Shown here piece by piece: positions 32,318 through 42,670 of a DNA stretch of 64,000 nt. The DNA is from a phage. A model generated the notes under the pieces. The model worked only from the letters and a program-made list of their open reading frames with translations, did no database searches and was not told the DNA's origin. Position numbers and translations under genes: made by a program. Location: NCBI GenBank assembly GCA_024673055.1, contig GCA_024673055.1_4537.1; one strand, written 5' to 3'. Position 1 is the first letter of the stretch; each line of letters starts with the position of its first letter.

Positions 32318-33262
32318 ATGGGACAAATAATTCTTGACAATCGTAACGGAATCAATTATAGTGTCTGCGATTTCCATAGGGTAGTGCTGCCTTACTCAAG
32401 GCAGTTCTCTTCACAACCTAAATACAACGTTTTCGTTTTTAACGGAGTGCCAACAAAAGGTAAAGAGGGCTTTTTAGCCCTTAAAAACCTAGGCTTTAAA
32501 ATGGTTATGGATTTGGATGACTCTTTAGTTATTCCAAAAGGACACATGTTAGAAGGTATTTTTGAATCAGGTATTCGTGAACATTTAAAATGGTTTTTAG
32601 AGCACAGCGATCTTGTTACAACTACGACACCTGCTTTGCAAGTTGAACTTTCACAATACAATGATAATGTGCACATAATCCCTAATGGACTTCCTTACGA
32701 TGAAGGTCAATTTGTGTTGACCCGTGATCGCTACTCCAAAACTCCATTAGTCTGGGCTGGAAGTGAAACACATAAACAAGATTTGGCTATCTTACCTGAT
32801 TTTGGTAAAGATCTTACAATATGTGGTTTTCGTAGGGATTCTGAAGTTTTAAGTAGTCGTGAATGGTCTGTAATCAGAGAAAATGTAGCACCAACTTGTG
32901 TTTATGAAGGTGTAAGACCATATGCCAACTACATGGAATCTTACGATGGTCATCAAATCAGTCTTGCGCCATTGATTGATAACGTGTTTAATAATGCAAA
33001 AAGCAATCTTAAAATTCTTGAGGCAGGTGCTAAGGGTTTACCTTTGATCTGTTCTCCTCGTGAGAATTATCATACGCAAGAGTTTAAAGATTTGTTATTC
33101 TTTGCTGAAACACCTTCCGAGTGGAAAGATATTACGGAATACTTATTAAGTGCTCCCGATGTTTGCATGGAGAAAGGATTAGCATTAGCTAAGTATGTCA
33201 GGACTCATTATCACATTGATGTGTTGAATGAGCGTCGTAGACTTTTATTTGAGGAGCTATAA
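32318..33262 (+). CDS. GT-B fold glycosyltransferase-like protein, paralog 2
   Basis: Collinear similarity to 31363-32310 (VVFN..., DLDD, SNLKILEAGAKGLPLICS, YVRTHY). Confidence 0.55.
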   Translation: MGQIILDNRNGINYSVCDFHRVVLPYSRQFSSQPKYNVFVFNGVPTKGKEGFLALKNLGFKMVMDLDDSLVIPKGHMLEGIFESGIREHLKWFLEHSDLVTTTTPALQVELSQYNDNVHIIPNGLPYDEGQFVLTRDRYSKTPLVWAGSETHKQDLAILPDFGKDLTICGFRRDSEVLSSREWSVIRENVAPTCVYEGVRPYANYMESYDGHQISLAPLIDNVFNNAKSNLKILEAGAKGLPLICSPRENYHTQEFKDLLFFAETPSEWKDITEYLLSAPDVCMEKGLALAKYVRTHYHIDVLNERRRLLFEEL

Positions 33263-33540
33263 TGATTAACACTTTTGATTTTGAATACACCACTCGTAAC
33301 GGGAAAGCTTTAGTCGTGGAGGTGGATTACTATTATGAAGAGCCTAACCCGCTTTCTCGTGAAAGTGATTGGGATTACCACGGAGGGCTTTTAATTGACG
33401 GTATTCGTTTTTACGAAGGCTCTACAGAAGTTTTTGAAAAAGATTTAAATGTAACTGTAGCAGAAATTGCTTTCCAATTTAGAAAGCACATGGAAGAACT
33501 AGAAGCAGAATATATGATGGAGACTAACGAACCATTTTAA
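33262..33540 (+). CDS. hypothetical protein (92 aa)
   Basis: ORF, start overlaps previous stop. Confidence 0.45.
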   Translation: MINTFDFEYTTRNGKALVVEVDYYYEEPNPLSRESDWDYHGGLLIDGIRFYEGSTEVFEKDLNVTVAEIAFQFRKHMEELEAEYMMETNEPF

Positions 33541-33552
33541 CAGGAGAACAAA

Positions 33553-35331
33553 GTGTCGCACATTATAACTAAATATGGATTTGATGTTGATCTTAGCAAG
33601 GAAGGGCATACAGGTTGTCCGCGCTGCATGAAAAATGGCAAGGATCGCTCTCGTAATAACCTGATGGTTTATGGATTAGATTCTAATGGAGAGCATAAAG
33701 GTGCTAAGTGCTTTGCGTGTGAATACACTATTCCTAGCGTAGAATGGTTACGAGAAAATGGTGAAGTTTTAGAAGAAGAGGAGGAGATTGTGGGTTCGGA
33801 ATTTAATAAACAGATTCATCGTAAAATTGTTCAAGAAACATCAACCAACCCACGTGGTTATCGAGGCATTAAAGAAAAAGTTTCATCTTTCTATGGTGTT
33901 CGTTATGAATACCGTCAGGAAGGGGATCAGATGGTAGTAGAAAGTTGTTTATATCCAACTACTATCGGTAAAGAATTGGTTGGTTTTAAGCGTCGTATTC
34001 ATCCTAAAGATTTCAGTAAACCTATTGGTCAAGTAGGTAAAGATGTAGATCTTTTTGGACAAATTCGTTTTGCAGACCGTTCTCATACTGTGGTAATTAC
34101 AGGTGGTGAACACGATGCTCTGGCAGCTTATCAAATGCTGTCTGAAAACTTGGACAACAAATATGAACTTCCAGCAGTAGTTAGTGGCACAACTGGTGAA
34201 ACCAGTATGTATAAACAAGTTCAGGCACAATATCCTTTTTTTGAAAAATTTAAGAAGATTATTGTTTGCATGGATAATGACAAAGCAGGTAATGAGGCAT
34301 TTGAAAATATTGTTAAGGTGCTGCCTCGTAACAAAGTCTACCGTATGCAGATGGATCTTAAGGATGCCAATCAGTATCTGGAAGAAGGTCGTGCAAAGGA
34401 TTTCGTAAAAGCTTTTTGGAGTGCTCGTCTATACACCCCAGCAGGTGTTTATGCTTCTAATGTCTTGTATGAAGCTGCATTAGAATGCTTGGAATCCAAG
34501 ATGATTACCTTGCCTCCTTTTATGCGTGTTGCTGCAAATATGCTGGGTGGTGGTTTAGTAGAGGAAGAGATTACAGTCATCCTGGCAAAGACCAGTATCG
34601 GTAAAACTTTGATGGTGAACGAGATCACCAAACATATTATTGTTGCGCACCCAGAACATACCCTAGGTATTCTGTCCTTGGAAGCAACTTATAAGAAATA
34701 TTCTCGTAACCTGTTGTCCTCGTTCCTGCATATTCCTCTACACAGGAAAACACCGGAAGAGAAATTTCAAATCTTGGAAGAGAATAAAGAAAAAATCCTA
34801 GATTTTTACGAAAGAGAAGATGGATCACCACGTTTTTATGTATGTGATGATCGTGGAGCAGATGTGGAGTCTATCAAAGAAAAAGTTTTGGAGATGATCA
34901 TCTATTTTGGAGTAACAATTCTTGTTATCGACCCTTATTCTGATTTGCTTTCTGGTATGGATGTTCAAGCCCAGGAAGAGTTAGCAACATGGTTGAAGCG
35001 CATCATGAAAGAGTATGCTATAACTATTATCGTCATCTCACACGTTAAGAAATCGGCTAATGGTGGCAATGAACACTTAACAGAGGACGATGCAATGGGT
35101 AGTAGTTTCTTGGCTAAAGGTGCTGGTATTACCTTGGCTTTGGAACGAGATAAAGCCGCTGAAGACCCTGTAGAACGCAATACGACTCATTGCTTTATCC
35201 TAAAAAACCGTGAGTTTTCGGAAACTGGTCCGGCAGGGCAGTTTTACTATGACATTAGAACTGCAACTCTGCATGACAAAGAGCAGTATTTCAACAATCC
35301 TGCTAATTTGCCTACGGATAGCAACTATTAA
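33553..35331 (+). CDS. bifunctional DNA primase-helicase (T7 gp4-like)
   Basis: N-terminal zinc ribbon CPRC...CFAC, TOPRIM-like VVITGGEHD/CMDNDKAG, Walker A AKTSIGKT, Walker B LVIDPYSD; GTG start. Confidence 0.85.
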   Translation: MSHIITKYGFDVDLSKEGHTGCPRCMKNGKDRSRNNLMVYGLDSNGEHKGAKCFACEYTIPSVEWLRENGEVLEEEEEIVGSEFNKQIHRKIVQETSTNPRGYRGIKEKVSSFYGVRYEYRQEGDQMVVESCLYPTTIGKELVGFKRRIHPKDFSKPIGQVGKDVDLFGQIRFADRSHTVVITGGEHDALAAYQMLSENLDNKYELPAVVSGTTGETSMYKQVQAQYPFFEKFKKIIVCMDNDKAGNEAFENIVKVLPRNKVYRMQMDLKDANQYLEEGRAKDFVKAFWSARLYTPAGVYASNVLYEAALECLESKMITLPPFMRVAANMLGGGLVEEEITVILAKTSIGKTLMVNEITKHIIVAHPEHTLGILSLEATYKKYSRNLLSSFLHIPLHRKTPEEKFQILEENKEKILDFYEREDGSPRFYVCDDRGADVESIKEKVLEMIIYFGVTILVIDPYSDLLSGMDVQAQEELATWLKRIMKEYAITIIVISHVKKSANGGNEHLTEDDAMGSSFLAKGAGITLALERDKAAEDPVERNTTHCFILKNREFSETGPAGQFYYDIRTATLHDKEQYFNNPANLPTDSNY

Positions 35332-35863: not shown

Positions 35864-36658
35864 TTGAGCAAGTTGAACACACTTGATCAATATTACACTA
35901 ACCCCGCTTATGCGGGGTTCTTATGTGATAAGATCAAAGAAATTTTTGGAGAGGAAGCTAACTACGTAGAACCATCTGCGGGAGAAGGAGCTTTCTCTTC
36001 TTGTTTTAAAAACATAACTTCTTTTGATATTGACCCTAAGTTTGAAGATTGTATTGAGGCAGATTTTTTAGCTCAATCTGTTGAGTCTGTTGGTAGTGTA
36101 ACTGCTTTTGTCGGTAATCCCCCGTTTGGAAAAAATGCTAGTCTTGCCATTAAGTTCTTTAACCATTGTGCTGAAATGTTGGATAACGAAGGTGGTATTT
36201 GTTTTATCTTGCCTCGCACATTTCAAAAAATCTTTTTTGCACACAAACTAAATCCCCACATGCATCTTCTTTACGAAGAAGAATGTCCAAAAGGATCTTT
36301 TATTCTTCATGGAGAACCTTGGGATGTTCCTTGCGTATTCCAGATATGGATTAAACGCAATGAGAAGCGTTCTCCCGTTGTTTTAGGAGAGAATCGACTG
36401 TTCGTATTAGGTAACAGTAAAGACTACGATATAGCCGTTAGGAGAGCGGGAGCAAGTGCAGGTAAAGTGTTATCAGAAGAAGATTCTTTATCTGAAGCAT
36501 CCACCTATTTTTTAAAAGCCTTGACTTCTGATCTTAAAACGCGTATCATTGAGGCTTACCCGTTACTTAAAGCTGAAGCTAGTAAAACTGCGGGAGTAAG
36601 AAGTTTAAGTTTAAAAGAACTTCAGTGGGTTCTGGAGAACATTAGAAAGGAGGAATAG
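35864..36658 (+). CDS. SAM-dependent N6-adenine/N4-cytosine-type methyltransferase (orphan)
   Basis: Motif I EPSAGEGAF, motif IV NPPF; TTG start after GGAGGA. Confidence 0.55.
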   Translation: MSKLNTLDQYYTNPAYAGFLCDKIKEIFGEEANYVEPSAGEGAFSSCFKNITSFDIDPKFEDCIEADFLAQSVESVGSVTAFVGNPPFGKNASLAIKFFNHCAEMLDNEGGICFILPRTFQKIFFAHKLNPHMHLLYEEECPKGSFILHGEPWDVPCVFQIWIKRNEKRSPVVLGENRLFVLGNSKDYDIAVRRAGASAGKVLSEEDSLSEASTYFLKALTSDLKTRIIEAYPLLKAEASKTAGVRSLSLKELQWVLENIRKEE

Positions 36659-39600
36659 TGAGTAAGTTTACATGGGATATTGAAGCAAACGGATTGTTGA
36701 ATAATGACACTATTGATTATTTAGCTAGTCCTTATCGTCTCAAAGACACATTTCAAATGCACTGTATTGTCTTAGAGAACCATGAAACAGGAGAAATAGT
36801 AGCTTTCCACGATGGCCCTAAATACATCTTTGATGGGCGTCCTTATGAAGAGTCAGATGGTAAATACACATATGTTCTTAAAGAGTATGTGGCGCAAGAT
36901 TACACACATTTTCAACTAAAAGATTTCCCAGACTTTATTAATCATGAAGGTTATTTTAAAGATAAGCCTGAATATCTGGTTGAAATGGCTGTGGCTCACA
37001 ACGGTATCAACTACGACTGGTTGGCTACAAAACTGTTTTATGGCTTAGATTACAGTGTTAAATATAACACGTGGGGCAAAAATAAGGTAAAACTTATTGA
37101 CTCCTTGATTTTGAGTAAAGTGTTAAACCCAGATCGAAAGATTGAGGGCAAATCAGGACATAGTTTGGCAGCACTTTCTCGAAAGGCAGGTGGTGATGTA
37201 AAAATAGATTTCCGTAAAGAGATTCCAGAAGAAGATCGATTTAAGACTTTTGCTGCGGATATGCTTTATTACTGTATTTATGACAACAAAGCCAATACGA
37301 GCGTATATAATTACCTTATGGAAGAATGGGGCGATTATGATAAATGGGAAGGTCCATTTGAACTTGAACAACGTGTAGCAGACATTATTACACGCCAGGA
37401 ACACCGTGGGTTTGCTTTTAACATGAAGCAAGCAGAAGAGAACCTTGCTTTTTTGGATGCAGAAATGGAGCGTCTTCGTTTACTCGTTGAGCCTATTTTG
37501 CCACCTAAACCAGCAACAAAAGGTTATCTTAAGGCTTTTATTCCACCTAAGTTGCAAATTAAAAAGAACTTAGAGCCAACTAACCATATGATCAATTTTG
37601 CTAAGAAACATGATGGTCATTTGGAAGAGAGGGATGGCGATTGGTGGTTAGTTATGTTGGGGAAAGAGTGGAAACTGCCAGTTGCAGCAGATGAGCCTCT
37701 ATGTGATCCTAACATTCCTGCAACATTGAACGATACAACCCATATTAAAAACTGGCTCGTAGGATTAGGTTGGGTACCGTCTGAATATAAAGATAAAGAC
37801 TTGACGCTTAAATCTGGCACCAAAATTAAAAAGAGCGAGGAAGAACTTCAGAAAGGTATTAGAGCTTACGTTGAGCAAACTCTATCTTCTAATTTTTGTC
37901 AGGATCGTTGTGATCATCTGGAGTGCACACCGGAAACTTTGGAAAGGAAGATTCAAGAGCGTATAGCAAAAGGTAAAGGTCGCGGTCTTAAAGTATTGAC
38001 TAACCCATGTTTTACCAAAGGTCAGGAAAAAGAAATTTGTCCTAACCTGCAAGCTTTGGGTGAGAAATTTCCTTATGCTACACAGATTGTAGAATACTTA
38101 ACGTATAAGCATCGTAGGAACTCTATTTTAGGTGGCGGTGCTGATTGGGAAGAAGATGAAGAAGATCAAGAATACGATAAAGGTTTCTTAGCCGCAGTAA
38201 GGGCGGATGGGCGTATTCCTACACCAGCCGCTACATGTGATGCTGCAACCTCTCGTATGAAACATAGATCTGTAGCTAATATTCCTCGTGTCACATCTTT
38301 GTTTGGATGGGAGATGCGTAACTTGTTTGGTGTAGAGGTTCCTAAATACTTCCAGATTGGCTACGACTTCGACTCTTTGGAAGCAAAAATTGAATCGCAT
38401 TACTGTGTGCCGATGGATGCTCAAGCTTTGACTCGTAAAGGTTGGGTAGGATATCACGACCTGAAGGAAGGGGATGAGATTTTAGGGTACAATGCTGAAA
38501 CAGGTCTGAAAGAATGGACTAAAGTAAAAGGTAAGGTCTTCTATAAAAATAGTAAGACGTTTGAGATTAAAGGGAAATCACACACTTACCGTGCAACAGC
38601 AGATCACCGTTGGTATGTTAATACCCGTAGTAAAGGGAATACTTATGTGCCTAAAGTCAGAACAACTGCCGAGCTTTGCACAGGAGATAACATTATTTGT
38701 AATGCTCCATTTAACATGGAACAAGATCAGGTAAATAGTTTAACTTCTGTTCAACAGGGTAAATGGGATGTTCCGTGGGTAGAACGTGTAGTTAATATGT
38801 CTCATGCCGAGCGTGTAGCTTTCTTGGAAGGTTTCTTGATTGCAGATGGTTACTGGCACGAACATAAACAAAAACCTGTTTGGCGTTGGGCGCAGAACCC
38901 AGGTGAACTTTTTGAAGCAGCTTTAACTGCCTCGTACCTGGTGCATGGAGGCAATATCTCTGTAGCTTTCAATACAAAAGAGCAGAAAGTAAAAGTGGCA
39001 ACATTGACTAACCGCTCTCACATTCCTGTTCAAAGTTTGACTATTGAAGAGTGGGGTGTAGAAGATGTTTGGTGTCCACAAACAGAACTTGGTACGTGGG
39101 TCATGCGTCAGAAAGACTGCATTACCATCACAGGAAACTGTTGGCGGTACGAGCCGGAGCCACACGAATATTGTAACGCTCTGTTGTTAGAGAAACCTAA
39201 TGATGTTCACACAATGATGGCAAAACGTATCACTGAAACTATTGGACGTAAATTTGAACGTAGTCCTGCTAAATCTGTTAAGTATGGTATTACCTATGGT
39301 GCACAAGCCGACAAGGTTGCTAAAACAATTGGTAGCGACAAGTTTACAGGTCAATTGGTGTTCGATGCTTTCTGGGAAGCTGCATTCCCATTGGCGCGTC
39401 TTAAAGAACGTTTAAACGATTTCTGGGTTAAGACTGGTAAACAATATGTTTTGGGTATTGACGGTCGTAAGGTTCCTACTCGTTCTGCTCACGCGATTCT
39501 TAACTCTCTGTTCCAAAGCGGTGGGGTTATCTGTGCTAAACGTGCAATGGTTATTTATGATGACATGATCGAAGAAGAAGGGCTAAGTGTTGACTTCTTT

Positions 39601-39990
39601 AAAGATGACTGGAAGAATAAAGACTTCGTGCAACAAATGATTGCATATCACGATGAAGCCCAGCTTGAAGTTTCTCGTAACCTTGTAGAATTCAAATGGT
39701 TTTCACCGGAATCATTAGGTTGGAAGAAAGTAGACGATCCTGAAGAACAAAAGAAAATTGATAAAGAATGCCTTGCTAAAGTTGAAGAATGGAAGCATAA
39801 TAAGGAAAAAGAGACAGGGCAAATTTGGGCTAACATTCATGAATCTCCCAAAGGTGGATGGTTTACAGCTTATAGTCGGGCAGGTGAACTTGCTGCTTTA
39901 GCTGTTACTAAGGCTGGAGAATTTTACAATCTTAATGTTCAGCTTACTGCTGGATATGACGTGGGGAATTCCTGGGCCAGTTGTCACTGA
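36658..39990 (+). CDS. family A DNA polymerase with 3'-5' exonuclease domain, interrupted by an intein
   Basis: Exo I WDIEANGL; motif A DFDSLEAKIESHY; motif B RSPAKSVKYGITYG; motif C YHDEAQLEV; about 245-aa insert between motifs A and B. Confidence 0.9.
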   Translation: MSKFTWDIEANGLLNNDTIDYLASPYRLKDTFQMHCIVLENHETGEIVAFHDGPKYIFDGRPYEESDGKYTYVLKEYVAQDYTHFQLKDFPDFINHEGYFKDKPEYLVEMAVAHNGINYDWLATKLFYGLDYSVKYNTWGKNKVKLIDSLILSKVLNPDRKIEGKSGHSLAALSRKAGGDVKIDFRKEIPEEDRFKTFAADMLYYCIYDNKANTSVYNYLMEEWGDYDKWEGPFELEQRVADIITRQEHRGFAFNMKQAEENLAFLDAEMERLRLLVEPILPPKPATKGYLKAFIPPKLQIKKNLEPTNHMINFAKKHDGHLEERDGDWWLVMLGKEWKLPVAADEPLCDPNIPATLNDTTHIKNWLVGLGWVPSEYKDKDLTLKSGTKIKKSEEELQKGIRAYVEQTLSSNFCQDRCDHLECTPETLERKIQERIAKGKGRGLKVLTNPCFTKGQEKEICPNLQALGEKFPYATQIVEYLTYKHRRNSILGGGADWEEDEEDQEYDKGFLAAVRADGRIPTPAATCDAATSRMKHRSVANIPRVTSLFGWEMRNLFGVEVPKYFQIGYDFDSLEAKIESHYCVPMDAQALTRKGWVGYHDLKEGDEILGYNAETGLKEWTKVKGKVFYKNSKTFEIKGKSHTYRATADHRWYVNTRSKGNTYVPKVRTTAELCTGDNIICNAPFNMEQDQVNSLTSVQQGKWDVPWVERVVNMSHAERVAFLEGFLIADGYWHEHKQKPVWRWAQNPGELFEAALTASYLVHGGNISVAFNTKEQKVKVATLTNRSHIPVQSLTIEEWGVEDVWCPQTELGTWVMRQKDCITITGNCWRYEPEPHEYCNALLLEKPNDVHTMMAKRITETIGRKFERSPAKSVKYGITYGAQADKVAKTIGSDKFTGQLVFDAFWEAAFPLARLKERLNDFWVKTGKQYVLGIDGRKVPTRSAHAILNSLFQSGGVICAKRAMVIYDDMIEEEGLSVDFFKDDWKNKDFVQQMIAYHDEAQLEVSRNLVEFKWFSPESLGWKKVDDPEEQKKIDKECLAKVEEWKHNKEKETGQIWANIHESPKGGWFTAYSRAGELAALAVTKAGEFYNLNVQLTAGYDVGNSWASCH
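38404..39138 (+). mobile_element. intein (about 245 aa) within the DNA polymerase, with degenerate LAGLIDADG-like block
   Basis: Starts with Cys right after motif A; block B-like RATADHRWYV; LEGFLIADGYW; ends ...ITGN followed by Cys; flanks resemble uninterrupted T7-type pol sequence. Confidence 0.65.
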
Positions 39991-40408: not shown

Positions 40409-40627
40409 ATGCGTAAATTAGTGAGCTTTAATGTTTCAATTTTTGTTGATGAACAAAATGAAGATGTTATTAAGGGTCTTGCAAATAAGATTGCAGGTGG
40501 AATGACGGAAGCTGAAGTGTGGGAAGAATGTGCTCGACTTTATGAGGAAGGTGTTATTGAGGTCTTGGGGGATGAGATTAATATGGACGATGTTGTAAAA
40601 GTAACTGTGGAGCGTATCAATGACTAA
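40409..40627 (+). CDS. hypothetical acidic protein (72 aa)
   Basis: ORF with AAGGAG RBS. Confidence 0.4.
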   Translation: MRKLVSFNVSIFVDEQNEDVIKGLANKIAGGMTEAEVWEECARLYEEGVIEVLGDEINMDDVVKVTVERIND

Positions 40628-41213
40628 ATCAAAACAAATCAATATTGCCAAAGAAATTCTTACCGTATTAAAGATCGCTGATCCTAATTCTGTCTTGGCT
40701 GGCGGTGCTGTTCGTGATTGGCGTATTCTTGATATTGCTGGACGTGATCTGGATTTCTATACATCCCTTCCTGCACATCGGACTGAAGAACAAATACAAG
40801 GATTAATTGCATCTGCTTTAATGGGAACCAATATTCGTAAACTAGGAAACAAAGAGGCTTCTGACAATTATGAAGGTGTTACTGGTCTTAAACACGTTTT
40901 TGAGTTTGAACGTGATGGTCAGCTTTGCAACCTTATGATTATGGAACCAAGCGTAATGACAACCTTTCTAAATGAGTTCGATCTGTCCATCTGCCAAGCT
41001 GCATTTGATGGGAAGGATTGTTATTATTCTAAAGATTTTGAAACAACCTTGGAAACAGGGATCTGCTTCTTGCACAAAGACGTTAGAGAAGATGCCAAAC
41101 ACGTTATTAAAATTGCTACACGTTTCCCATATCTTCGTTTTGTGAAAGAGGTTAAGGTTCCACGTCCACCTCAAGTAGATACCAGATTGGAAGAAGATGA
41201 TATTCCTTGGTAA
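40620..41213 (+). CDS. nucleotidyltransferase-fold protein (Pol-beta superfamily) with SSB-tail-like C-terminus
   Basis: LAGGAVRDWRILDIAGRDLDFY resembles the GGxVRD...DxD head motif of CCA-adding/polyA polymerases; C-terminus ...LEEDDIPW. Confidence 0.45.
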   Translation: MTKSKQINIAKEILTVLKIADPNSVLAGGAVRDWRILDIAGRDLDFYTSLPAHRTEEQIQGLIASALMGTNIRKLGNKEASDNYEGVTGLKHVFEFERDGQLCNLMIMEPSVMTTFLNEFDLSICQAAFDGKDCYYSKDFETTLETGICFLHKDVREDAKHVIKIATRFPYLRFVKEVKVPRPPQVDTRLEEDDIPW

Positions 41214-41220
41214 TTAAAGC

Positions 41221-41250
41221 TTGACAATATTAAACATTTTATGATAGGAT
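41221..41250 (+). promoter_or_regulatory. sigma70-like promoter TTGACA-18-TAGGAT
   Basis: Direct reading. Confidence 0.35.
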
Positions 41251-41258
41251 AGCATTCA

Positions 41259-41651
41259 ATGACTGAACGTTCTAAGATAGCTGTTGAAACTGTTTATGGA
41301 AACTATACCAGTTTGACACTAGTTGAGAAAAATGTTGTAGGTCTTGACAACTCTTTTTATTTTCAAATTTTGGTTATTCAAGGTGGAAACAAGAAGCTAA
41401 CTGCTCGTGTTGAAACATCTGAAATAATTGAAACCACTGTTACAAACAAAGAATTCATTTCACTGCAAGATACAATCCGAAACGTTATAGACGAAGAAGG
41501 CAAAGCTGCCACAATTAAACTCGGAGGTTTTCCAGTGCAAATAGTTCATTTCCCTAATGGTGAAATTGGAGTTGGAATAGGTAAAGGTAAATACCTGTTA
41601 GAGCAAGATGATATGGAAAGACTCCGCTCTTTCTGTGCAAAATTAATGTAA
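41259..41651 (+). CDS. hypothetical protein (130 aa)
   Basis: ORF. Confidence 0.45.
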   Translation: MTERSKIAVETVYGNYTSLTLVEKNVVGLDNSFYFQILVIQGGNKKLTARVETSEIIETTVTNKEFISLQDTIRNVIDEEGKAATIKLGGFPVQIVHFPNGEIGVGIGKGKYLLEQDDMERLRSFCAKLM

Positions 41652-41667
41652 TGTAGAGGAGATAATA

Positions 41668-42600
41668 ATGTCCGTAATTAATACTGAAACTGATCGTAAA
41701 GGCAAAACCGTAACTTATGCAACTGGTATCGTAGACTACGTTAAACTGGATAAATTCGCTGAACCTAAAACTTTTCATTGGGAAGGAAAAACGATTGTTT
41801 CAACTCACCGAGCTTCTCTTGTTCTGAAAGAGAAAGGTGCTAAACCAGATGAGAAAGGTGTTTGGATTTCTCTTGGTGACATTGAACTGAAAGAAGGTTA
41901 TGAAAACCTGCAAGTCAAAGAAGGTGATAATTGGATCACTATTGAAAAAGGTGTAGAAGTAAGTATTGATATTGATCGCGTTGATAATAAAGGCGGTAAA
42001 ACTTACTACAATACTAAAAAATCTCGTATTACAGTATTGTCTACCGATGGTGTTCAGAAGTCTAACAAATCTTCTGGCAATAAAGGTTCCAACGATGCTG
42101 CTCCTAAGCAATCCTATAAAAAACGTGATACTGTAGGTCTGGAAACTGGTCACGCAGTAAATGGTGCACTGGAACTGATTCGTAATGGTGTTAAAGGCGA
42201 TGCTTTCGATATCGCTGGGGTTGTTCAATCTGCAACTGTCACGCTGAAATCGGAAATTGCTGAATCTCGTGGCGTTGATATTAATGATTATGATCTTGGG
42301 GCATCTGTTGGTCACGCTATTCTTAATGCTTGTAAAGACCATACCATTAAGACTGTATCTGTAGAAGATCTGATTGACTCTGCTCGTAAAGTTCTAGCTC
42401 TGTCTGATAAAGTTGCTGCTGCCATTCGTGGTTCCGCAGAACAACCTAAGAAAGAAGAGAAGAAAGAAGTTAAAAAGCCTGAACCACAACCAGAACCAAC
42501 TCCAAGTAATCAAGAAGAACCTCCAATGGACTTCGACGATGATATTCCATTTGCTCCTATTGGACTGCAATATGGTCGAAACTTCCTGCATTGCTTCTAA
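41668..42600 (+). CDS. single-stranded-DNA-binding-protein-like (SSB-like)
   Basis: Contains ...EEPPMDFDDDIPF, matching the E. coli SSB C-terminal tip, followed by 15 extra residues; CTG/CGT/GGT-rich codon usage. Confidence 0.55.
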   Translation: MSVINTETDRKGKTVTYATGIVDYVKLDKFAEPKTFHWEGKTIVSTHRASLVLKEKGAKPDEKGVWISLGDIELKEGYENLQVKEGDNWITIEKGVEVSIDIDRVDNKGGKTYYNTKKSRITVLSTDGVQKSNKSSGNKGSNDAAPKQSYKKRDTVGLETGHAVNGALELIRNGVKGDAFDIAGVVQSATVTLKSEIAESRGVDINDYDLGASVGHAILNACKDHTIKTVSVEDLIDSARKVLALSDKVAAAIRGSAEQPKKEEKKEVKKPEPQPEPTPSNQEEPPMDFDDDIPFAPIGLQYGRNFLHCF

Positions 42601-42635: not shown

Positions 42636-42670
42636 AAAAGAAAGGAGCCATTTGGCTCCTTTTCTTATTT
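42636..42670. terminator. bidirectional terminator between convergent gene blocks (A-run, GGAGCC-ATTT-GGCTCC, T-run)
   Basis: Hairpin 42644-42659 flanked by A-rich and T-rich tracts. Confidence 0.6.

Follow-up and report, generated by a model that had tools for sequence, protein, structure and literature searches.

The window analysed here is a stretch of 64,000 nucleotides (nt) of phage DNA (contig GCA_024673055.1_4537.1 of assembly GCA_024673055.1). It belongs to a Phapecoctavirus, that is, a phAPEC8-like E. coli myovirus of ~150 kb from the subfamily Stephanstirmvirinae. Its plus strand carries, at positions 40620-41213, a complete gene for a miniature nucleotidyltransferase (NTase) of 197 amino acids (aa). 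Sequence and structure comparisons identified the predicted protein as a distant homologue of the catalytic domain of Gad2, a phage protein that inhibits the bacterial defence system Gabija. They further revealed that its gene lies within a replication gene block and that the protein ends in a peptide resembling the C-terminal tip of SSB, the protein that binds single-stranded DNA. We tentatively favour the reading that this Gad2-related mini-NTase, tethered to the replisome or to the SSB hub by its SSB-tip mimic, shields phage DNA, which we regard as possible rather than likely.

The gene is an intact open reading frame (ORF) that starts with ATG, ends with TAA (41211-41213) and overlaps by 8 nt the end of an upstream 72-aa ORF (40409-40627). 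Its product matches PHROG 10174 (E 6.5e-63) and PHROG 1614 ("nucleotidyltransferase"). More than 60 Phapecoctavirus genomes match the window region at 97-99% identity, and the NTase gene is 97-100% identical in more than 60 Phapecoctavirus records, where it is labelled "nucleotidyltransferase", "putative tRNA nucleotidyl transferase / poly(A) polymerase" or "hypothetical protein". An earlier sequence-only reading of this DNA had placed the ORF, the motifs GGAVRD (residues 28-33) and DLDF (residues 43-46) and the true C-terminal EEDDIPW exactly where we find them. Databases already contain the gene together with its PHROG and Pfam families, and it does not represent a new kind of protein. What appears to be new is that such mini-NTases share their catalytic domain with Gad2, that they are systematically associated with T7-type replisomes, and that a docking motif like the SSB C-terminal tip (SSB-Ct) sits on an enzyme rather than on an SSB. 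A literature search on SSB-tail mimics and NTases of this phage group found no paper on the replisome association or on an SSB-Ct motif on an enzyme.

A minimal nucleotidyltransferase head

AlphaFold2 modelling based on an alignment of 132 family members yielded a structure that is well defined to about residue 175 (mean predicted local distance difference test score (pLDDT) 92.3; predicted TM-score (pTM) 0.85). This model replaced one from a 12-sequence alignment, which was too poor (pLDDT 65). The modelled catalytic core (residues 1-175; 40620-41144, plus strand) consists of a Pol-beta NTase head and a short helical neck stub, and contains the elements of the Pol-beta fold, namely a helix, a G[GS] turn and a DxD strand within an alpha/beta fold. 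Secondary structure ends by residue 175, and the pLDDT drops to 75 for residues 181-190 and to 58 for residues 191-197. In a Foldseek search against the Protein Data Bank (PDB), all of the best 30 matches were class II tRNA NTases (30/30; TMq 0.5-0.59). At the level of the structural model, the NTase fold and its likeness to the class II head are established. The sequence-only reading had proposed a Pol-beta-type NTase and had made this depend on structure prediction, which returns an NTase fold with high confidence and class II heads as its nearest neighbours.

The active-site motif A (residues 27-47, AGGAVRDW...RDLDFY; 40698-40760, plus strand) follows the class II pattern GGxVRD-x8-9-DxD (GGAVRDWRILDIAGRDLD), and the family profile aligns at this place to the PDB entries 6ibp, 3aql and 1miv. 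The codons for G28-G29-A-V-R-D33 occupy 40701-40718 and those for D43-L-D45-F46 occupy 40746-40757 on the plus strand; D43 and D45 are the putative metal-binding aspartates. Across the 132 family members, G28, G29, D43 and D45 are invariant, and A27, A30, R32, D33 and W34 are at least 90% conserved, a pattern that speaks against a chance occurrence of the motif. E95 (40902-40904, plus strand), on the strand V93-F-E95, is the likely third catalytic carboxylate as judged from Pol-beta topology; its column holds E in 80, D in 14 and N in 20 of the 132 members. The conserved columns of the family are Q6, A10, AGGA(P/V)RDW, DLDFY, Y84, V93-x-E95, Q104, F120, S123, C125, F140, H161, K164 and F169-P170.

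The same comparisons place the protein outside the family of CCA-adding enzymes and poly(A) polymerases (PAP), with which it shares the catalytic core. Its score against Pfam PolyA_pol stays below the cut-off (13.9 vs 23 bits, E 0.07), as do its scores against the NCBIfam CCA models (e.g. TIGR02692, 12.6 vs 438.8 bits), and phmmer against PDB sequences returned only noise matches such as an abscisic-acid receptor. In class II enzymes, motif B (RRD) serves ribose recognition, and motif D (EDxxR) is the amino-acid template for CTP and ATP. An RRD motif B is not present in the window sequence: the place before FDLSICQAA reads LNE, and the family column is not basic. We considered EDAKH (residues 157-161) as a motif D and rejected it, since family conservation does not support it (E157 column, D20/W19/E14; D158, D21/K21; R position, H76/Y50 among the 132 members). 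The body and tail domains of the class II enzymes are missing as well: the window protein has ~175 structured residues and less than half the size of class II tRNA NTases and PAP I (PF01743; PDB 3aql, 3h37, 1miv, 3wfo), and 153-164 residues align to the 340-460 aa of the class II targets. Unlike these enzymes, it carries an SSB-tip-like tail and is encoded in a replisome operon. The sub-cut-off scores, the distinct conservation pattern of its own family and the lack of motif B, of a conserved motif D and of the body and tail domains together set it apart. It is a minimal, probably active enzyme that consists of a class II CCA/PAP-like head with a neck stub and nothing else. A stand-alone protein described as a "CCA-adding enzyme head domain" is known from Streptococcus pneumoniae (NP_344798.1; PDB 2la3); it is bacterial, has no known SSB-like tail and was not recovered by the family profile at E<=10, so that no sequence relationship is detectable.

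Distant kinship with Gad2

An exhaustive search with the family profile recovered 1045 clusters at E<=1e-3 and 333 at E<=1e-10; in the best 150 of the 1045 clusters, most proteins are stand-alone and 190-220 aa long. Members are found in Phapecoctavirus, Justusliebigvirus, Vibrio phages (including ICP1 ORF223), Aeromonas, Pseudanabaena and Nonlabens phages and many podophages (LKD16, Cd1, PP2, phiAS7). Structural neighbours of the window protein in BFVD are NTases of 170-215 aa, mostly from podoviruses (Pseudomonas LKD16, Caulobacter Cd1, Pectobacterium PP2); these phages are classed as T7-like.

Gad2, with ~400 aa and a predicted NTase domain, is Gabija anti-defence protein 2 of SPbeta-like Bacillus phages; it is necessary for the resistance of SPbetaL7 to Gabija, and a Brevibacillus homologue is sufficient to inhibit Gabija (Yirmiya et al., bioRxiv 10.1101/2023.05.01.538930). 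A 2026 review lists Gad2 among the Gabija inhibitors and describes its mechanism as not elucidated. The Pfam family PF26128 (Gad2) is precomputed on many members of the mini-NTase family, including P0166 and a relative with 60% identity and a DDDIPW tail (P0009), as well as on 120 of the 120 listed homologues of the experimentally verified Brevibacillus Gad2. Aligned with hhalign, the family matches a 40-sequence Gad2 alignment with 95% probability (E 3.8e-8, 119 columns), registering window residues 11-153 to Gad2 residues 16-141, and it matches the single verified Brevibacillus Gad2, taken from the supplement of the Gad2 paper, with 88% probability (E 2.8e-6). These profile matches identify the window NTase as a distant homologue of the Gad2 catalytic domain that lacks the C-terminal 250 residues of Gad2. 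The sequence-only reading had missed this kinship; of its functional interpretation, the SSB-like tail is supported, and the proposals of tRNA repair and nucleotide signalling are not.

Both proteins are phage-encoded and share, in their homologous NTase domains, the GG and DxD residues, an equivalent of Q104 and the motif F-D-x-[ST]-[IV]-C. They differ in architecture and setting. Gad2 homologues have 355-474 aa with invariant residues out to position 349, whereas the window protein ends at 197 aa and thus does not have the full Gad2 architecture; Gad2 is encoded in a variable anti-Gabija locus of SPbeta-like Bacillus phages and has no SSB-like tail, whereas the window NTase has one and belongs to a replisome operon. 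A 400-aa family member (P0079) was considered as a protein of Gad2 architecture and rejected, since tblastn showed that its C-terminal NTase part alone is shared, without a match in Bacillus phages. The N- and C-terminal extensions of the longer family members yielded no Pfam domain. The homologue gp22 of Pseudomonas phage Emajogi is mildly toxic on over-expression and is annotated as Gad2-family in some phages.

At 137 aa, the ICP1 homologue ORF223 (L039, 5001-5363) corresponds to residues 4-127 of the window NTase. The NTase match extends over two annotated ORFs in many ICP1 records, suggesting that the copy is truncated or split. The best PHROG match of the window NTase, PHROG 10174, is likewise 137 positions long.

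An SSB-tip-like tail on a flexible linker

The catalytic core is followed by a flexible, proline-rich basic linker (residues 176-190, KEVKVPRPPQVDTRL; 41145-41189, plus strand; isoelectric point (pI) 10) and by the terminal peptide E191-E-D-D-I-P-W197-COOH (41190-41210, plus strand), so that the protein ends in PPQVDTRLEEDDIPW. E. coli SSB (PDB 1eqq) ends in PSNEPPMDFDDDIPF-COOH (...PPMDFDDDIPF), and the window protein ends in ...RLEEDDIPW-COOH directly before the stop codon. The acidic run followed by [IL]-P-aromatic at the extreme C-terminus, which defines the SSB-Ct, is therefore present, with W in place of F. It also stands on a predicted disordered linker, as indicated by the fall in pLDDT, and is conserved independently of that linker: DDIPW is retained in relatives down to 59% identity, and the linker before it varies in length and sequence. 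The sole close exception is a relative with 83% identity that ends in ...EEDDSFPW (P0003). In the homologue from Citrobacter phage Tr1 (36% identity) the end reads ...SKPKDIPW, which indicates that the conserved core of the tail is D-I-P-W-COOH and that its acidity is variable, a difference from the SSB tip. A further difference is that the motif sits on an enzyme instead of an OB-fold ssDNA-binding protein (ssDNA, single-stranded DNA).

At a given C-terminus, D-I-P-[FWY] is expected by chance with a frequency of ~2e-5, i.e. ~0.006 times per phage of 270 genes; in the whole genome of the near-identical phage Mt1B1_P17, DDIP[FW] occurs in the NTase and in the neighbouring SSB-like protein only. 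Among 258 distant family representatives, four end in -IP[FWY]-COOH (NDIPW, DDGIPF, KPIPF and ESIPY) against 0.08 expected (p 1.5e-6), and IMG/VR holds a fifth example, NNIPF. The same ending is carried by 8 of 715 non-redundant neighbour ORFs, seven of which are read as SSB-like from their tail and position. Taken together, these counts show that -IP[FWY] marks SSB-like proteins and, recurrently, the NTase family. As judged from the conserved motif on its flexible linker and the match to the E. coli SSB end, the resemblance to the SSB acidic tip, which the sequence-only reading had pointed out, is real and not a product of chance.

A precedent for two different proteins using one tail exists in T7, where gp2.5 and gp4, both replisome proteins, dock on one and the same polymerase via acidic tails that end in an aromatic residue. 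The terminal Trp has parallels in acidic proteins of 223-245 aa (PHROG 862) from podophage-like replication modules, which end in ...KDKDIPW (L044, 2134-2805), ...DGDDVPW (L038, 727-1416) and ...EGEDTPW (L053, 7807-8544). These are probably the ssDNA-binding proteins of the respective phages, in which case a terminal Trp is a natural variant of the SSB tip; searches of the DIPW- or DTPW-ended candidates against Pfam and PDB sequences gave no match.

Association with T7-type replication modules

In the window, the NTase gene is part of a same-strand block with the order glycosyltransferases, primase-helicase, a 154-aa ORF, a further ORF with an NPPF motif, family A DNA polymerase (PolA), three small ORFs, NTase, a 130-aa protein, an SSB-like protein and a terminator-like hairpin. 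The T7 gp4-type DNA primase/helicase (33553-35331, plus strand; 592 aa) is annotated as "putative primase/helicase" in phage muut; its equivalent in a relative (L010) carries the Pfam domains Toprim_2 and DnaB_C, and the neighbour cluster found family-wide corresponds to PHROG 239. The polymerase (36658-39990, plus strand; cluster PHROG 17) has 1110 aa, and the SSB-like protein (41668-42600, plus strand; 310 aa) is annotated as "single-stranded DNA-binding protein" in Mt1B1_P17. Justusliebigvirus (muut, phi92-like), Citrobacter phage Tr1 and a metagenomic relative all retain PolA, NTase, 130-aa protein and SSB-like protein in this order, and the primase-helicase upstream of them is also kept across the genera of Stephanstirmvirinae.

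This arrangement extends beyond the subfamily. Within ±5 kb of the NTase gene in 55 dereplicated IMG/VR locus groups, a T7 gp4-type primase/helicase (PHROG 239) was found in 36/55, PolA (PHROG 17) in 32/55 and a second DNA polymerase type (PHROG 1252) in 7/55; exonucleases (PHROG 107) and homing endonucleases accompany the NTase in 10/55 and 15/55 groups, respectively. In the podophage-like locus L053, which is typical, the NTase comes after a 550-aa and a 170-aa protein and is followed in turn by proteins of 645 aa and 152 aa and by the 245-aa acidic protein that ends in ...EGEDTPW; by size and order, the 550-aa and 645-aa proteins are read as primase-helicase and polymerase. The Emajogi homologue gp22 is numbered directly before the primase/helicase gp23. 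The linkage of the NTase family to T7-type replisome genes looks obligate.

A candidate counter-defence enzyme within the replisome operon

Firm ground for the proposed tethered, DNA-shielding enzyme is given by its fold and conserved catalytic motif, by its homology to Gad2 and synteny with replisome genes, and by a tail that is conserved and SSB-like; from these we infer its binding partner, its substrate and its anti-defence benefit. Kinship with Gad2, residence in T7-type replication modules and the docking peptide together suggest that the enzyme acts at SSB-coated ssDNA, at the replisome or at DNA ends. The tail would stand in, as a targeting device, for the missing body and tail domains. 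It would dock in an SSB-tip pocket of the phage PolA, the primase-helicase, the SSB-like protein or a host SSB-interacting enzyme, and thereby concentrate the NTase at SSB-coated ssDNA, phage replication forks and DNA ends. There, the enzyme would transfer nucleotides, most likely to a polynucleotide 3'-OH, as its closest structural relatives do, and less likely to a protein. The most likely benefit would be that phage DNA, while replicating or linear, is shielded from Gabija and other host systems sensing DNA ends or ssDNA, which would make the protein a Gad2-like counter-defence built into the replisome operon. Gabija is the obvious candidate: recent work ties it to DNA ends lacking RecBCD, and Gad2 is listed among its inhibitors. 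A more specific version, in which the DIPW tail delivers the NTase to the pockets of SSB partners or to DNA structures, where it covalently modifies a DNA 3' end or an SSB-interacting host protein of repair or defence and so blinds immunity that senses DNA ends or ssDNA, for instance Gabija, we hold to be unlikely as a whole.

Several observations weigh against a tethered Gad2-like shield. Gad2 is only remotely homologous (~18% identity across 119 columns), its GGTITS stands against GGAPRDW in this family, it carries a C-terminal domain of ~250 aa that the window protein lacks, and the window's own 90% cluster (P0001) has no precomputed PF26128 match. Since the mechanism of Gad2 itself is still to be worked out, the term Gad2-like explains little on its own. 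As to the enzyme, the putative third carboxylate E95 is replaced by N in 20/132 family members, and the core, with a pI of 5.6, is mildly acidic and shows no evident surface for binding nucleic acids. As to the tail, Justusliebigvirus homologues lack it (...NNEEFKI), which implies that it is dispensable for the basic function of the family. A looser definition (aromatic end plus at least three acidic residues in the last 10), since replaced by the specific -IP[FWY] test, gave only weak enrichment outside the close clade (7/75 NTases vs 31/780 other ORFs). The DDDIPF of the SSB-like protein is internal, so docking in this phage may not follow the E. coli paradigm. Finally, a fixed place in a core operon across genera is unusual for an anti-defence gene and suits housekeeping replication equally.

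The last point leads to the strongest alternative, in which the protein is a replisome accessory without any defence role: the tethered NTase would tail or process 3' ends, be they those of primers, of Okazaki fragments or of genome termini, for instance for priming, marking or aiding concatemer formation in normal T7-type replication. The slot between PolA and the SSB-like gene, fixed across genera, fits such a role, as do the co-occurrence with primase-helicase and PolA genes and the fact that the nearest fold relatives extend polynucleotide 3'-OH ends. Against it, the only experimentally characterised relative, Gad2, acts in anti-defence, and the family is patchy among related phages, with a truncated or split copy in ICP1, which suggests dispensability. 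To our knowledge, model T7-type replisomes, including that of T7 itself, also replicate without such an NTase. We consider a pure housekeeping role rather unlikely.

Gabija is among the commonest bacterial defence systems and Gad2 is verified to act against it; the Gad2 catalytic domain now emerges as part of a far larger phage family of stand-alone NTases of ~200 aa, several lineages of which have acquired an SSB-tip-like docking peptide. If the more specific version, in which the tail-delivered NTase blinds immunity, is correct, the window would encode a previously undescribed kind of enzyme-based, replisome-embedded counter-defence and provide a first mechanistic handle on Gad2-type NTases. 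If the enzyme proves to be ordinary, an annotation in therapeutic E. coli phages is still corrected and an enzyme with an SSB-Ct-like motif is documented. The value of these observations lies in a concrete, testable clue to the open question of the Gad2 mechanism and in the repair of a probably misleading tRNA label.

Alternative roles in tRNA repair, decoy and signalling

The label "tRNA nucleotidyltransferase/poly(A) polymerase" reflects a further alternative, also raised by the sequence-only reading, in which host or phage tRNAs cut by defence nucleases would regain their CCA, or just the terminal A, through this enzyme. The closest solved folds are indeed class II CC-, A- and CCA-adding enzymes, and motif A (GGxVRD...DxD) is the same as theirs. 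Defences of the OLD family that cleave tRNA exist, jumbo phages encode CCA-adding enzymes for repair, and the near-identical phage Mt1B1_P17 carries 11 tRNA genes. The particulars of the protein speak against tRNA as its substrate: a head with a neck stub (197 vs 340-460 aa) lacks the domains that hold tRNA, there is no RRD motif B, EDAKH is not conserved in the family, and the scores lie below the PolyA_pol cut-off and far below those for NCBIfam CCA models. The genomic context agrees with this. We found no tRNA genes in the 64-kb window; the 11 annotated tRNA genes of Mt1B1_P17 lie ~40 kb from the NTase (L009 28210-30132 = Mt1B1_P17 94212-96131), two of them flagged as pseudo, and all 11/11 are followed by a genomic CCA, so that their maturation needs no CCA addition. 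Across the family, tRNA genes lie within ±5 kb in 5/60 loci, and primase-helicase or PolA genes lie there in about two thirds. The SSB-tip-like tail points to DNA-maintenance hubs and not to tRNA, and the relationship to Gad2 makes replicating DNA a likelier site of action than tRNA. The absent motifs and domains, the CCA-encoding tRNAs and the scarcity of nearby tRNA genes leave tRNA repair as a minority hypothesis, which we regard as improbable, and the tRNA label of the gene is probably misleading.

Alternatively, the tail itself could be the main effector. Host proteins of repair or defence (ExoI, RecQ, PriA, SSB-sensing systems) would have their SSB-tip pockets filled by this decoy, and the NTase activity would be of secondary importance or lost. 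The tail does end in a true C-terminal -IPW-COOH, the form needed by SSB-Ct pockets, whereas the DDDIPF of the neighbouring SSB-like protein is masked by 15 residues, and several defence systems sense phage SSB. The catalytic residues are, however, invariant in the family, which speaks for the enzyme being active; such a tail is absent from most family members; and a decoy would require stoichiometric competition with abundant SSB tetramers. Such a role is quite improbable.

The synthesis of nucleotide signals or decoys, in which cyclic or linear oligonucleotides or modified nucleotides would jam immune signalling or alter nucleotide pools, is very improbable and the weakest of the readings. 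GajA of Gabija is reportedly a nucleotide-sensing endonuclease (Cheng et al. 2021), which would favour it, and a distant tail-bearing family member (P0121) is encoded among MazG, deoxynucleoside monophosphate (dNMP) kinase, thymidine kinase and NUDIX genes. Synthesis of cyclic GMP-AMP (cGAMP) and cyclic di-AMP (c-di-AMP), which block TIR-STING, is known from some phage Pol-beta NTases (Ho et al., bioRxiv 10.1101/2022.06.09.495361). These MNT-like enzymes resemble the window protein in being small phage Pol-beta NTases, with an anti-defence role, but differ from it in sitting in anti-defence neighbourhoods. Their signature GS-x-AY[GAN]T-x4-SDxD and the downstream NP-x-h2[DE] are not found in the window protein, which has AGGAVRDW...RDLDF, and GGAPRDW-x8-DLDFY in its family marks a different clade. 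We therefore rejected the window NTase as a cyclic-dinucleotide phage NTase. A docking tail is, moreover, ill-suited to a maker of soluble small molecules, and the nucleotide signalling suggested by the sequence-only reading found no evidence in its favour.

Further features of the replication block

Directly downstream of the NTase gene lies the gene for the 130-aa protein (41259-41651, plus strand; PHROG 16560), which follows the NTase throughout the Stephanstirmvirinae seen, including muut and Tr1, and occupies the +1 position in 10/10 loci of its cluster. It has no Pfam or PDB match and may be a functional partner of the NTase. A sigma-70-like element, TTGACA-18-TAGGAT, is located just 5' of its gene (41221-41250); in a promoter scan, promoter-like sites in the region were no commoner than in shuffled sequence.

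Residues 279-295 of the SSB-like protein, PSNQEEPPMDFDDDIPF, copy the E. coli SSB tip, including a host-identical PPMDFDDDIPF, and are followed by 15 further residues (APIGLQYGRNFLHCF; 42553-42600 region) that mask the free carboxylate. Outside the tail, the protein matches PHROG 4477 only. An extension of the same 15-residue type is present in Mt1B1_P17, Justusliebigvirus muut and Citrobacter Tr1. In a relative with an identical NTase (L013) and in L014, L015 and L019-L023, the stop codon comes straight after IPF and is followed by a terminator hairpin. In Mt1B1_P17, an endonuclease gene lies directly 3' of the SSB-like gene, and the tail extension may be the footprint of a mobile element. 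In the window, a bidirectional terminator-like hairpin (42640-42663) closes the plus-strand replication block.

The 1110 aa of the window polymerase compare with 865 aa for the annotated DNA polymerase I of Mt1B1_P17. The extra ~245 aa (...SHY/CVPMD... to ...TITGN/CWRY) interrupt the polymerase and look like an intein or a homing insertion. Between the primase-helicase and the polymerase, a 264-aa ORF (35864-36658), "hypothetical" in Mt1B1_P17, contains an NPPF motif (GNPPFGKN), which we take to be typical of N6-adenine DNA methyltransferases.

Endings related to the SSB tip are also seen on smaller proteins. In the NTase loci L088 (569-985) and L089 (774-1169), a protein of 131-138 aa, which is not SSB-sized, ends in ...IFDDDIPF or ...IFDDDIAF. 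Just 5' of the primase-helicase of the window, a 92-aa ORF (33262-33540) ends in ...AEYMMETNEPF, with an acidic, Pro-Phe C-terminus.

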